This document shows, piece by piece, positions 18,361 through 23,573 of a DNA stretch of 56,589 nucleotides (its first letter is position 1; each line of letters starts with the position of its first letter). The notes beneath the pieces were generated by a model. The model saw only the letters and a list, made by a program, of their open reading frames with translations. It did no database searches and had not been told where the DNA came from. Position numbers and translations under genes: made by a program. The stretch is from a phage, in the sequence record PZ445422.1. The stretch is one strand, 5' to 3'.

Positions 18361-18720
18361 ATTCCATTATTCCAATTATTCCGGAATCTGGAATAATACT
18401 GTATATCCATACACCATATTCCATTAACAATCCTGTCACGATTTGTATTCTTTCACTTTTTGTGAGTTTTGGGACTTTTTAACAATGACCCAAAAACATT
18501 CAAATAATACCAATAGGTACTATATACATTACTAATAAATCCTTATTTTATATATATTTATGGTATTACTTATTAACTTTTAGTTTCTATCCGTTTTTAG
18601 TCTGTTGACTGAAAGTTTTAGGTTTTTGCGCTCTGGAGTACCGATTCCATTATTCTATCAAGTAGGAATAATTTATTCCACTTCCATCATTTGGATTTCT
18701 ACCCATTCCATTCACTATTC
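18361..18720. repeat. AT-rich region with multiple direct and inverted TTCCATTATTCC / GGAATAAT elements
   Basis: copies near 18361, 18375-18397 (inverted pair ttattccggaat...ggaataat), 18415, 18645, 18663, 18705; no credible ORF. Confidence 0.5.
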
Positions 18721-18867
18721 ATTTAGTATCTATCTTATTGATTTATATACGTTTTTTACTAACAGTCGGGATTAGGGTATTAGGGTAAAAAATGCGTTTT
18801 ACCCCAAAACGCAAAAACTTACTGCACCAACTTATTGTTTTTATTAAAGTTTTTAGCAACAGTGGCA

Positions 18868-18965
18868 CCACAAAACTTCGCAAAACTTTGCAAAACTCAC
18901 AAAACTTTCCGTCACATTGTGCAAACTGTGGAGCACCAACTATTCCTACCCAAAACTTTCCATTA
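18868..18965. repeat. tandem 9-10 bp iterons CAAAACTT (4 contiguous copies plus one downstream)
   Basis: ccacaaaacttcgcaaaactttgcaaaactcacaaaactttcc then cccaaaactttcc; helical-phase spacing. Confidence 0.5.
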
Positions 18966-19066
18966 CATGTGGTTATATATTAACAATCCGCTCACATCAT
19001 AACTTCAGGTGGAATAATTGTGGCTGGCCTACTATGGATTGTGTATAGTGCTGTTAGGAGGTAGGT

Positions 19067-19282
19067 ATGGACTGTCAAAAAGAATTTGATCTTAAATACA
19101 TAACCACATCAGAAATTGAAAACCGCTTCGGTCTTAGTCGTCGCAAATTATGTTCGCTTCGCGGTAAGCTGCCGGGCGAAGTTAAGATTGCTAACGTGTA
19201 TGTTTATGTTCGTGCAGTTGCAGAACCTGTCTTAATGTTGCACGCTGGCCGGGTTGTGCCGGAGGTTGGTCGTGGGTCGTAA
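19067..19282 (+). CDS. hypothetical small protein (possible DNA-binding)
   Basis: 71 aa; strong AGGAGG RBS; first gene after the AT-rich region. Confidence 0.45.
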   Translation: MDCQKEFDLKYITTSEIENRFGLSRRKLCSLRGKLPGEVKIANVYVYVRAVAEPVLMLHAGRVVPEVGRGS

Positions 19283-19553
19283 GTGCAGGACTGTCCCGGG
19301 CAGTAATTTCAAAGGGCGCGGGCTCGCACGCCGGAAACCGCGAGTGCCTCGGGAAAATGTGAGCGGGCGTGAGGGCGTTACTTTCGATTATAAAACTGGT
19401 AAATGGCTTGCCCGATTAACATGGGTAGATGCAGGCGGAGAAACAAGGCGAACTTTCCTTGGACTGTATGACAGCATGAAAGACGCTTGCGAAGTATATG
19501 ACGCAAATAATTCAGCATACGAAGAATGGCGGAGGAAACAGATTTATGGCTAG
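19254..19553 (+). CDS. AP2-domain DNA-binding protein candidate
   Basis: VTFDYKTGKWLARLTWVDAGGETRRTFLGLYDSMKDACEVYD follows the AP2/ERF pattern (GKW.A.I....G..R..LG.F...E.A..AYD); start uncertain, overlaps previous gene. Confidence 0.4.
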   Translation: MCRRLVVGRKCRTVPGSNFKGRGLARRKPRVPRENVSGREGVTFDYKTGKWLARLTWVDAGGETRRTFLGLYDSMKDACEVYDANNSAYEEWRRKQIYG

Positions 19554-19815
19554 AAAAATACCATATATAGGTAAAGAGATGATTCGATTCCCTGCTCCAT
19601 GGCTGGGAGAAGGACAATTTGAGGATGTATGCGCTTATTTTGAAGAGGTGGAATTAAAAGGTGGGATTACACAATATCGCGCATTTATTAGAGTCATGGA
19701 TGAGTATCAGTATATTGGCACATATGCCACAATGGATACAGCTTTCGTCACTATCGATAAAGTCAAGGATGTAATTACATCTCTGTTAAAAGTGATTGTT
19801 AACGAAGGTAAATGA
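19546..19815 (+). CDS. hypothetical protein
   Basis: ATG at 19546 with GGAGGAAA RBS (internal start of track ORF 19498..19815). Confidence 0.45.
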   Translation: MARKIPYIGKEMIRFPAPWLGEGQFEDVCAYFEEVELKGGITQYRAFIRVMDEYQYIGTYATMDTAFVTIDKVKDVITSLLKVIVNEGK

Positions 19816-22151
19816 TGGAACTGTTTCCCGCTGAAATTAAAGCTTTCCCACAATGGGCGGTCGCCGATGCGGATAAAAAGCCGCTCGTATGGGATAACGA
19901 TATTGGACGTTTGATGGCGGCGGACGTTACCGATCCGGATATGCTTATGACGTTTGAAGCTGCCAAAGGTTGTGCTGCTCATTTCAATAAACCTTATATT
20001 GGCTTCGTGCTTACTGCGCAAGACCCGTTCACCTGTATCGACCTGGATGTGAAGAACGCAACCAATGAACCGGATCCCAAGAAGCACACAACGCCGGAAC
20101 AGTTGCGCCGCTTCGAACAGATCATGACTGCGTTCGATACTTACACCGAAGTAAGTCGCTCAGGCTTGGGCGTCCACCTGTGGTTAAGAGGGAACATCGG
20201 TAAAGGTCGCCGACGTGATGGTGTCGAGGTTTATAGTCAGGAGCGTTTTATTATCTGCACTGGTAATCCTGTCTACAACAAACCAGTTGCAGAACGTGAT
20301 CATTACCTTACTATGCTTGTGAATGAAATTGATCTTCAGCGCAAGACATATGAAATTGAACTGGTAGAAAAAGATCCGGTAGAAGATGATGCAACTATTC
20401 ATCAGCGCGCACTTGAAGCAGACAACGGCGATAAGTATGCACGCCTATTCAATGGCGAATGGGTTGAAATGGGATTCCCTTCCCAGTCTGAAGCAGACCT
20501 TGCCCTTATTTCCATGTATGCATTTTACACAGAAAGTAATGAGCAATGTCGCCGTCTGTTCCGTTACAGTGCACTGGGCAAACGTGAGAAGGCTAATAAG
20601 AACAATGTTCATATTGACCGTTGTTTGCGTATGTGTCGCGGTCGCATGGAGCGTGAACGCATTGCCCAGGAAAACGTAGCGGCGCTGGCGCGGGATTACG
20701 CTGCTCGTATGCAAGCTGCACACAGTGCAATGCAGCAGGTAACGGAAATGCCTGTAACCACAGTCAGCCCGTCCGGTGAAATAGTAGTTGCAGAAAGCAC
20801 GTCCATTGATGCAACAGCTATTGAATGGCCGCCGGGACTTGCTGGTGAGCTTGCGAAGTATATCTACAAAGCATCGCAGCGTCCGGTGAAAGAAATTGCA
20901 ATCACTGCATCGTTAGCATTCTTGTCAGGTGTATGCGGTAAGGTATGGAATACTATCACCAACACAGGGCTGAACGGTTACTTTGTGCTCATTGCCCGAT
21001 CAGGTGTGGGTAAAGAAATGCTTCACGCTGGGCCCAGCTATATTTGTAAGCAGGTAGGCGAGCAATTACCGCAAGTGCATGAATTTGTAGACATGACTAA
21101 CTATGCTTCCGGTCCTGCCTTGCGTAAAAGTTTTGCGGATCATACTTCGTTTGTGAATATTAACGGCGAGTTCGGTAAAACCATTAAAGGTATGGCAACA
21201 GCTCAACCTGGCACTGCAAACTACACCCTGAAGCAAACTATTACAGATGTGTATCAAAAATCTGGTGCGATGGATGTTGTTGGCGGTATCGGATATTCTG
21301 ATAAGGCTAATAATACCAAAACAATGGAAGGGGTAGCGTTCAGCATTTTGGGCGAAACAACACCGGACACATTCTTTGAAGCGTTAACACGTGAAATGAT
21401 GGAAGACGGTTTCTTGTCCCGTTTCCACATTGTGCAATATGAAGGGGATCGTGTTCCTGCAAACGAGAATCCTGAAATTACAATGCCGCAGCAATTAAAG
21501 GACATGGTGTGCCATCTTGTTAACCACACGTTAGTGACAATGGCGAAGTTCCAGACCGTTACCGTCCAGTTAAGCTCTGAAGCGGAAAGGATTGAACGGG
21601 AGTTTAACTTGCTGTGTGATGAACACATTAACGCAACTAAAGACGAAGCTATCCGTCAGCCGTGGAACCGTGCTCACCTTAAAGCTCTGCGTCTTGCTTC
21701 CCTGTTAGCAGTGGGGGAAAACTGGATCAATCCTGTCGTTCAGCCCAATCACATGCAATGGGCGGTAGATTTTGTTACGCATGGGCAGGACATCATGATC
21801 AACGCATGGGAAAAAGGTACTATTGGCGGTGATGATGAAACGCGTGTGAAGGCTATCTGTCAGGTCTGCAAAGATTATCTTGGCGGTAAAATTGCATGCG
21901 ATCGTAAGGAGCTGCGAGTTGACGGTATTATTCCGAAGGCAACTATCACACGCAGAACCTACGGGTTAGCAGCATTCAAGAATCACAGGATGGGAGCAGG
22001 TACTGCAACAGACCTCACTATCAAACAACTTGTAGACATGGGCGCGCTTGTTCCGGTTACGCGTGAAGATGCGTTGAAGCGTAATTTCAGGGGATTGGGA
22101 TGGTATATAGACGAGTCAATTGAGAGTGTTTTCAAGGACTTAAGCAAATAA
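19812..22151 (+). CDS. DNA primase-polymerase (Prim-Pol) with C-terminal NTPase-like region
   Basis: 779 aa; N-terminal block GFVLT..DPFTCIDLDVKN and VSRSGLGVHLWL match Prim-Pol catalytic motifs; C-terminal region with P-loop-like LIARSGVGKE. Confidence 0.65.
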   Translation: MMELFPAEIKAFPQWAVADADKKPLVWDNDIGRLMAADVTDPDMLMTFEAAKGCAAHFNKPYIGFVLTAQDPFTCIDLDVKNATNEPDPKKHTTPEQLRRFEQIMTAFDTYTEVSRSGLGVHLWLRGNIGKGRRRDGVEVYSQERFIICTGNPVYNKPVAERDHYLTMLVNEIDLQRKTYEIELVEKDPVEDDATIHQRALEADNGDKYARLFNGEWVEMGFPSQSEADLALISMYAFYTESNEQCRRLFRYSALGKREKANKNNVHIDRCLRMCRGRMERERIAQENVAALARDYAARMQAAHSAMQQVTEMPVTTVSPSGEIVVAESTSIDATAIEWPPGLAGELAKYIYKASQRPVKEIAITASLAFLSGVCGKVWNTITNTGLNGYFVLIARSGVGKEMLHAGPSYICKQVGEQLPQVHEFVDMTNYASGPALRKSFADHTSFVNINGEFGKTIKGMATAQPGTANYTLKQTITDVYQKSGAMDVVGGIGYSDKANNTKTMEGVAFSILGETTPDTFFEALTREMMEDGFLSRFHIVQYEGDRVPANENPEITMPQQLKDMVCHLVNHTLVTMAKFQTVTVQLSSEAERIEREFNLLCDEHINATKDEAIRQPWNRAHLKALRLASLLAVGENWINPVVQPNHMQWAVDFVTHGQDIMINAWEKGTIGGDDETRVKAICQVCKDYLGGKIACDRKELRVDGIIPKATITRRTYGLAAFKNHRMGAGTATDLTIKQLVDMGALVPVTREDALKRNFRGLGWYIDESIESVFKDLSK

Positions 22152-22178
22152 ATAAAGGGCCTTTCGGCCCTTTATTGT
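22152..22178. terminator. bidirectional intrinsic terminator
   Basis: aaagggcc-tttc-ggcccttt hairpin flanked by A and T tracts between convergent genes. Confidence 0.6.
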
Positions 22179-22402
22179 TAGTTGAAATAGTAATCGTCGA
22201 CGTCGTACCTTGCCATAATTTCGGATGCTTCCGCCGCACTTTCCGCTTCTTCATAAGCTTTCTCAGCGTCATCATAAGTACCGTAATACATCCAACCTTC
22301 ACCCATTGGACGGATGTATGCTTCAAATTTACCAGTACGCGGGCGACGTACAACTTTATAATCCGCGCCCATTGTGCTATATACTTTATTCAGCATGACC
22401 AT
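22178..22402 (-). CDS. AP2-domain DNA-binding protein, antisense island in the plus-strand module
   Basis: YKVVRRPRTGKFEAYIRPMGEGWMYYGTYDDAEKAYEEAESAA fits the AP2 pattern; GGAGG RBS 8 nt before ATG at 22402. Confidence 0.5.
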   Translation of the reverse strand: MVMLNKVYSTMGADYKVVRRPRTGKFEAYIRPMGEGWMYYGTYDDAEKAYEEAESAAEASEIMARYDVDDYYFN

Positions 22403-22560
22403 TTTGTAATCCTCCGCTCTGTTTATGAGTTAATAGTACAGCTAGACGGATCAAAGGTAAAGGCAAATCGTGCTATTTTATAGATGCATTTCAAGTCTAA
22501 AGTTGTTGCATACATCTCAAGTCCTGCTATACTTACAGCATAAAGTTAACGGAGGGAACA

Positions 22561-22635
22561 ATGTTCGAGCTTTTAAAATTATTTGCGGGTGCTATTTTCG
22601 TAGCTGGTTACTTCTGGTTTATGTATATTCTGTGA
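22561..22635 (+). CDS. 24 aa hydrophobic peptide (MFELLKLFAGAIFVAGYFWFMYIL)
   Basis: own translation; GGAGGG RBS 5-6 nt upstream; single TM-like segment. Confidence 0.3.
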   Translation: MFELLKLFAGAIFVAGYFWFMYIL

Positions 22636-23155: not shown

Positions 23156-23467
23156 AGCTTGCCATTCAAGACTGCATCCTTTAAGATAACCACAGTTAAC
23201 GAGGTTTAACAATTTAACAACATTAACTTAGTGAACGATGCTTAACTCAAGCCCTTGAAAGCGGTAGCTGTACCTCCTTACAGCAACTACTTTCGCTGGG
23301 CTTCCTGGAGCGGACAGGATAAACCCGCAACTTACTGAACGATGTGAACGATGTTTAACGCGACGGCGCCAGATGTACCAAACCGTCACCAGCCTTTGGC
23401 GAGGCTGTACAAGTAGGCCAGGATAGACGAAGACGGCAGTCAAAGTAAGCTATCCGACAATCAAGAG

Positions 23468-23498
23468 AGCCCAGGAATCCTTATGCCTGGGCTTTTTT
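23468..23498 (+). terminator. intrinsic terminator
   Basis: agcccagg ... cctgggct stem followed by TTTTTT. Confidence 0.6.
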
Positions 23499-23573
23499 GT
23501 TCCTTGAGATCAACAGAACTTCAATATAAAATTCTTTATGAAGTGTTTTACATTAAAGTTATGGAGACAAACA

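Follow-up and report, generated by a model that had tools for sequence, protein, structure and literature searches.

What would a virulent phage do with small, free-standing genes for a domain that belongs elsewhere to selfish nucleases? The AP2-type fold, a three-stranded sheet with a helix, is the DNA-recognition module of phage HNH homing endonucleases, and an earlier note, made from the letters of the sequence record PZ445422.1 alone, described two short AP2-like open reading frames (ORFs) around a primase gene. The window analyzed here, i.e. the whole 56,589-bp stretch of that record, was identified by megablast as the complete genome of Escherichia phage GottfriedDienst (BASEL Bas21, MZ501071.1), rotated and reverse-complemented, so that a window position equals 65581 minus the MZ501071.1 position. 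Bas21 is a virulent E. coli phage (Queuovirinae, Seuratvirus), and a scan of IMG/VR returned close relatives as the sole matches. Both ORFs are carried in MZ501071.1 as hypothetical proteins, bas21_0069 and bas21_0066, and the literature on Bas21 and Seuratvirus, as searched, mentions neither of them nor their neighbor bas21_0068. The coordinates given for bas21_0066 were exact. Those of bas21_0069 were right at the end (19553) and wrong at the start, since the proposed TTG at 19254 lies 18 nt too far upstream; a GTG at 19272 is preceded by a GGAGG at 19261-19265, and the orthologues in KS_W4 and in the relative L004 have ATG at that codon (numbers beginning with L denote the loci compared). 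Our reading is that both are genuine, selected, nuclease-free AP2-fold genes for which functions can be proposed. Taken as a whole we consider it moderately probable; the part concerning identity and ancestry is quite likely, and the part concerning function is tentative.

The sequence pattern that drew attention to these ORFs is real. Pfam AP2 (PF00847) matched bas21_0069 with an E value of 2.5e-4 and bas21_0066 with 5e-3, so that the AP2 profile search that the earlier note had proposed as a check gave significant matches for both, though sub-threshold ones, and they were the only two of the 94 annotated Bas21 proteins that matched this family at E <= 0.01. For bas21_0069 the similarity reached known endonucleases. 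The AP2 part of phrog_99 ("HNH endonuclease", positions 207-255) matched it at 5.8e-6, and the linker and AP2 domain of the HNH-AP2 endonuclease SA80RD_69 (residues 110-150) showed 43% identity over 46 residues (BLASTP, E 6e-9). In the PDB its family profile matched the WRI1 AP2 domain at 6.6e-5, and AP2 domains were the best matches in PDB sequence searches for both the bas21_0069 and the bas21_0066 families. The protein is strongly basic, with an isoelectric point (pI) of 10, and retains the GKW.AR motif. Its orthologues at 75-90% protein identity have intact reading frames, with a ratio of nonsynonymous to synonymous substitution rates (dN/dS) of 0.12-0.13 against relatives with dS of 0.5 or more. 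Diverged metagenomic phages carry bas21_0069 either as an 80-residue form, which comprises exactly the linker and the AP2 core, or as forms of 149-151 residues with an unrelated N-terminus. Judged by these sequence comparisons, bas21_0069 is an AP2-type protein with homology to the linker and AP2 module of intact HNH-AP2 endonucleases. It is an accessory gene, found in 10 of 34 Seuratvirus records, and it shows the presence/absence polymorphism at an insertion hot-spot by which the HNH-AP2 class can be recognized; bas21_0066, present in all 34 records, does not.

In bas21_0066 the AP2 signal of the single sequence is weak, with the AP2 part of phrog_99 matching at 5.8e-3; phrog_22269, of unknown function, matches it over its full length (2.6e-51, positions 1-74 of 74). 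A profile made from four family members was compared by HMMER with 1.84 billion representative proteins at a cut-off of E <= 1e-3 and gave 38 matches. All eight of the matches outside the family that were checked contain from 2 to 8 Pfam AP2 domains (E 5.5e-17 to 2.1e-64). As the matches of this profile beyond its own family were AP2 proteins, we accept the relationship. The structure prediction, also proposed in the earlier note, points in the same direction: the AlphaFold model of bas21_0066, with a predicted local distance difference test score (pLDDT) of 73, has the expected AP2 order of strands and helix, consisting of an extra N-terminal strand, three strands, a long helix and a disordered tail. 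At the level of the fold, a three-stranded antiparallel sheet on a C-terminal helix, similar to solved AP2 domains, was found, and structural alignments with plant AP2 domains gave 22-31% identity. On the sheet R31 and W37 are invariant, and the Bas21 form retains six basic residues. Besides the Seuratvirus records, relatives down to 34-38% identity were detected in metagenomes and in Salmonella phages, and dN/dS was 0.08-0.23, with dS of the relatives from 0.5 to saturation. From the profile search and the model, bas21_0066 belongs to the AP2 fold as a more diverged member. The two families showed no relationship to each other by hhalign, and thus bas21_0066 and bas21_0069 are not recent paralogues.

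Several results weigh against this reading. Both proteins stay below the Pfam gathering score of 33.3 (21.7 bits for bas21_0069 and 17.6 for bas21_0066), and only two of seven members of the bas21_0066 family, compared one by one, matched Pfam AP2 at E <= 1. Only one of the five AlphaFold models of bas21_0066 was confident. Its orthologues are all acidic (pI 4.0-5.1), which argues against classical DNA binding, and in the L019 and STP-SP5 forms most of the basic sheet residues are gone. DNA binding by bas21_0066 is doubtful because the protein is acidic and, given also its disordered C-terminal tail of acidic and aromatic residues, we give a protein-binding mechanism nearly equal weight. Carried to its end, this would make bas21_0066 an acidic sheet-helix binder of a host or phage protein, with an ancestral or coincidental resemblance to AP2; it might then serve as a takeover factor, mimic DNA, or associate with the replication machinery by way of its acidic and aromatic tail. 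Among the alternatives this is the one that survives best, and we still find it rather doubtful: the profile search returned only AP2 proteins, with E values down to 1e-17, and neither the identity to plant AP2 domains in structural alignments nor the invariant R31 and W37 and the six basic sheet residues of the Bas21 form would be expected from it. We therefore keep to an AP2-fold protein, for which we propose a regulatory role that might be exerted through protein contacts as much as through DNA contacts.

The absence of a nuclease does not depend on where the genes were called. Four HNH-AP2 proteins compared with the whole window by tblastn revealed no HNH remnant in any frame and matched only the AP2 part of bas21_0069 and the N-terminus of the primase, while Pfam gave no HNH_3 match in bas21_0069 or bas21_0066. 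Since there is no HNH similarity anywhere in the window, both proteins are free-standing, as had been proposed, and no endonuclease domain is concealed by a frameshift. The flanks leave no hidden nuclease either, gene 70 (bas21_0070) overlapping the start of bas21_0069, and a promoter region and a terminator bounding bas21_0066. Furthermore, the low dN/dS values indicate that neither gene is a decaying pseudogene. The earlier note had also called bas21_0066 the only minus-strand gene of its module. This holds for conserved ORFs, but GenBank lists bas21_0065 and bas21_0062 on the minus strand as well. The frame of bas21_0065 (22423-22515, 30 residues) is interrupted by a stop in L019 and by indels in L016 and L018, that of bas21_0062 (23228-23389) by stops in L004, L016 and L018, and neither was retained as an antisense gene. 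By this comparison bas21_0066 is the sole conserved antisense protein gene of the module. The annotated bas21_0065 is probably spurious, and it overlaps the putative bas21_0066 promoter. The coordinates of all these features are collected in Table 1.

Table 1 Features of the primase region of Bas21, in window coordinates
Feature	Position	Strand	Description
Phased CAAAAC(T) repeats ("iteron region")	18871-18968	+	Repeat families D1 and D3, spaced by about 10 bp, ahead of the operon promoter
Promoter-like site of the primase operon	18991-19018	+	CTCACA-16-AATAAT with TG; predicted by consensus scan; block kept in four diverged phages
bas21_0070	19067-19282	+	Small basic protein, phrog_11967; first gene of the primase operon
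bas21_0069 (ORF 1)	19272-19553	+	Linker and AP2 domain, 93 aa, basic
bas21_0068	19546-19815	+	89 aa, hypervariable; tentative AP2-like fold
Primase/helicase	19812-22151	+	779 aa; DUF3987 and NrS-1 polymerase HBD domains (Pfam)
Hairpin terminator	22151-22176		Bidirectional, serving both bas21_0066 and the primase gene, between their convergent stops; stem of 11 bp with GAAA loop, flanked by an A-run and a T-run
bas21_0066 (ORF 2)	22178-22402	-	AP2-fold protein, 74 aa, pI 4.6, acidic
Ribosome-binding site (RBS) of bas21_0066	22411-22415	-	GGAGG; read from the sequence; invariant in six phages
Putative bas21_0066 promoter	22433-22461	-	TTTACC-17-TACTAT; by eye; TACTAT invariant; 8/12 match, below scan threshold
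Putative divergent promoter of the downstream plus-strand operon	22506-22533	+	TTGCAT-16-TGcTATACT (extended -10); by eye; TGCTATA and GTTGCA blocks invariant in six phages
Micro-ORF, unannotated	22561-22635	+	MFELLKLFAGAIFVAGYFWFMYIL; 24 aa, hydrophobic; GGAGGG RBS; first gene past the divergent control region

The surroundings of bas21_0066 are consistent with an independent unit of expression. Its orthologues always lie on the strand opposite to the primase gene, 26-31 bp past the primase stop, and are preceded by a control region of about 230-240 bp, which is 86% identical across phages while the bas21_0066 proteins themselves have diverged far more. In STP-SP5, for instance, the primase is 91% identical and the bas21_0066 orthologue 34%; as its identity does not track that of the primase, the gene has been exchanged or evolves independently. 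The RBS and the bidirectional terminator that had been assigned to bas21_0066 were both found, the former 8 nt ahead of the ATG and the latter at a site for which the SA80RD annotation gives a terminator on each strand. Hairpins with other stem sequences occur in L016, L018, L019, Vid5 and JenK1, and the structure is probably functional since it is kept while the stem sequences differ. The promoters of the control region are putative and were recognized from conserved sequence blocks. In our proposal bas21_0066 would be expressed as a convergent unit of its own, with its own RBS and the conserved divergent control region.

The frame of the 24-residue micro-ORF is retained, with conservative changes, in L004, L016, L018 and L019, and the C-terminal peptide of Vid5_gp59 is similar to it. 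Small acidic proteins whose genes run convergently toward the primase gene, with a hairpin terminator between the two, were also seen in other genera, namely Vid5_gp60 (L021 4171-4392, 73 residues, Vidquintavirus) and JenK1_gp57 (L023 4379-4609, 76 residues, Nonagvirus). Neither hhalign nor Pfam nor PHROGs revealed homology of these two to bas21_0066, and they are treated as positional analogues only; in Pseudomonas phage PaMx25 there is no such small convergent acidic gene after the primase gene. Farther downstream, a non-coding gap of about 420 bp (23156-23572), within which the annotated bas21_0062 falls, is conserved as DNA in relatives, and the corresponding place in Vid5 is taken by a tRNA-Ser. 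Neither a tRNA nor an Rfam family was found in this gap or in the rest of the region from 18.2 to 23.6 kb.

On the other side of the primase gene, bas21_0069 belongs to a compact gene cluster. Genes 70, 69, 68 and the primase gene overlap successively by 11, 8 and 4 nt (the primase start forms an ATGA overlap with gene 68), and because of these overlaps they form one translationally coupled operon. The product of the first gene, bas21_0070, matches phrog_11967 at 2e-22, and its SA80RD homologue weakly matches a helix-turn-helix PHROG; by eye it appears to be a helix-turn-helix protein of the AlpA/excisionase type. Other genera too have a bas21_0070 homologue ahead of their primase gene (Vid5, PaMx25). 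The interval from gene 70 to the primase gene has very different contents in different phages. Greed has nothing in this slot; SA80RD has an HNH-AP2 endonuclease there, ECP2304 gene 69 with a version of gene 68 (68') and the endonuclease, KS_W4 gene 69 with 68', SHIN8 a 70-residue protein and L018 a 195-residue protein with a degenerate HNH. Judged by these contents it is a homing-endonuclease hot-spot. The endonucleases of SA80RD (L002 3011-3535) and ECP2304 (L010 1502-2026) start with the first 16 residues of the primase itself, MELFPAEIKAFPQWAV, and a complete primase gene follows directly after the endonuclease gene (compared with window positions 19815-19907). As these residues are repeated and the full primase follows, the endonuclease element is an insertion into the 5' end of the primase gene that duplicated the start of that gene.

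The 195-residue protein, found on a metagenomic contig (L018 8594-9181, minus strand), has an endonuclease-like N-terminal half and matches phrog_99 at 4e-9. HNH_3 reaches only 13.6 bits in it, the catalytic His seems to be lost in an alignment made by eye, and a short AP2-like stretch resembles bas21_0069. The protein may be a nuclease-dead intermediate. We also considered it as a bridge between the families of genes 69 and 68 and discarded the idea, the similarity to gene 69 being restricted to 17 columns (E 0.0034) and that to gene 68 nil.

Gene 68 itself, missing from the earlier note, is a possible third AP2-like gene. Proteins at this position form 17 clusters at 90% identity, all of them on Seuratvirus-like contigs of about 60 kb, and a strand-strand-helix pattern is common to them. 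The slot is hypervariable, its proteins being 18-42% identical in phages with primases of 77-100% identity. In hhalign the bas21_0068 family was related to the AP2 part of the HNH-AP2 proteins with 89% probability (E 2.6e-6) and to the bas21_0066 family with 55% probability, and the AlphaFold model of bas21_0068 has four strands and a helix (pLDDT 65). In a profile search of the PDB, AP2 entries were among the top matches at non-significant values (E > 0.09), and none of the 17 members of the family matched Pfam AP2. Tentatively, the profile comparison and the model suggest that bas21_0068 shares the AP2-like fold.

With this slot in mind, we propose that bas21_0069 could be the orphaned or domesticated DNA-binding module of an HNH-AP2 endonuclease lineage that has been colonizing it. 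It would be a nuclease-free, sequence-specific DNA binder, acting perhaps in the regulation of the primase operon or by occupying the old homing site. The earlier note had suggested other targets, the repeats of the "iteron region". This region is the only cluster of at least four CAAAAC within 120 bp in the window and has an inverted partner at 18458-18480. It is part of a larger cassette: in 10 of the 34 Seuratvirus records the right half of the AT-rich region, allele A of gene 70 and bas21_0069 co-occur exactly, and the other 24 have a 248-residue phrog_27223 gene with allele B of gene 70, the two types being mutually exclusive and having in common no more of the AT-rich region than its left ~390 bp (window 18629-19553 compared with Greed, L011 693-1704). 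One could thus imagine that the AP2 proteins bind the AT-rich repeats and act with the primase/helicase in origin recognition or initiation. The co-translation of bas21_0069 with the primase and the exclusive association of the cassette, found also in STP-SP5, L004 and L016 with the phased CAAAAC repeats conserved, would agree with this. However, co-occurrence is what linkage within a cassette of ~1.2 kb would produce anyway, and GCAAAAC is found in inverted copies in phages of the other cassette type, which have no bas21_0069, so that the repeats were rejected as a specific target of this protein. In addition, AP2 domains reportedly favor GC-rich targets (PMC10448857), and bas21_0066 is acidic. 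Beyond physical linkage, the connection of the AP2 proteins with the repeats found no support, and we regard a role at the origin as improbable.

A less favorable view of bas21_0069, and of bas21_0068 with it, is that they are inert leftovers of endonucleases, functionless and heading for deletion. The accessory distribution of bas21_0069 would fit, as would the intact and degenerate endonucleases that occur in its slot, and Bas21, whose genome is the group's smallest, lacks HNH genes altogether. A frameshift-split HNH/AP2 pair in phage ICP1 has also been read as an inactivated element (PMC10448857). But leftovers would hardly keep a dN/dS of 0.12-0.13 at such synonymous distances, with frames intact at 75-90% protein identity, nor a conserved RBS and overlapping, coupled starts, and the 80-residue form retains precisely the linker and the AP2 core. 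We consider this explanation very unlikely. Just as unlikely is the idea that the AP2-fold proteins guard against homing by covering HNH-AP2 target sites near the primase 5' end and so blocking cleavage by co-infecting relatives, which would agree with their position at the insertion hot-spot, with the endonuclease of SA80RD and ECP2304 inserted in the first primase codons and duplicating them, and with the variability of the gene-68 slot (18-42% identity at a primase identity of 99-100%) that a conflict would produce, but not with ECP2304, where bas21_0069, a 68-type gene and the endonuclease stand together, and for which the literature searched holds no experimental precedent.

The boldest version of these ideas would have all the AP2-fold minigenes as domesticated endonuclease modules in inter-phage conflict, with bas21_0069 and bas21_0068 occluding homing sites and bas21_0066 as a decoy or partner that no longer binds DNA. 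We give it little credence. If it were true, there would be a series from a selfish nuclease to a nuclease-free cellular function within one phage lineage, in parallel to the proposed origin of the plant AP2 factors. On our preferred reading, that of selected AP2-fold genes without a nuclease, what is gained is a fold and a likely ancestry for three genes annotated as "hypothetical" in a phage that serves widely as a model, one of which (bas21_0066) comes from a PHROG of unknown function and is present in every Seuratvirus record. Furthermore, a primase-side hot-spot with intact, degenerate and nuclease-free forms in one lineage should be useful for studying the domestication of DNA-binding modules of selfish elements. 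No long-standing question is opened by these AP2 genes.

Among known systems the closest are the HNH-AP2 endonucleases themselves (Pfam HNH_3 and AP2, phrog_99), represented by SA80RD_69, WVH02358.1 of ECP2304 and the IPA-HNH class of ICP1. They share with bas21_0069 the basic linker R/K..N.SG..GV, the AP2 domain and the genomic slot. The nuclease domain, however, is theirs only, with none in the Bas21 proteins or genome, and as this is the defining domain bas21_0069 and bas21_0066 fall outside the family. These endonucleases are also mobile, whereas bas21_0066 is non-mobile, occurs throughout the genus records and is acidic. Both proteins would descend from the AP2 module of such endonucleases and may work like it. 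In the virulent phage ICP1, gp115 and gp116 are a gene pair, one HNH and one AP2-only, that arose by frameshift from an HNH-AP2 element (PMC10448857). The AP2-only ORF of this pair resembles bas21_0069, but in ICP1 the HNH half is adjacent and the pair has been read as inactivated, whereas Bas21 has no HNH half, and purifying selection acts on its AP2-only gene. CapR, of the Vibrio satellite PLE, is described as the DNA-binding domain of a homing endonuclease domesticated as a repressor (PMC8096241, as cited in PMC10448857). From that account it would be the same kind of reuse that we propose for bas21_0069, an endonuclease module turned into a nuclease-free regulator; CapR, however, derives from T5orf172 endonucleases and its function is experimental, while the Bas21 proteins are of AP2 type and their function is a proposal.

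The plant and apicomplexan AP2/ERF domains (AtERF1, 1GCC and 2GCC; TEM1, 7ET4; WRI1, 7WQ5; PfSIP2, 6SY0) have their fold in common with bas21_0066. They are basic and lie within larger transcription factors, whereas bas21_0066 is an acidic protein whose fold is extended by an N-terminal strand and an acidic tail; as read by eye from the alignment, it differs from them at several DNA-contact positions. The arm-type DNA-binding domains of tyrosine integrases (HPI integrase, 3JTZ; Tn916 integrase, 1BB8) are similar to bas21_0066 at the level of the fold only. Unlike them, it is a protein of 74 residues standing alone without a catalytic domain, its sequence signal leads to AP2, Bas21 is virulent, and integrase families are absent among the Pfam matches listed for its genome. 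Stand-alone AP2 ORFs thus have precedent in phages, and it is the bas21_0066 family, acidic and convergent with the primase gene, that is the most unusual part of this locus.

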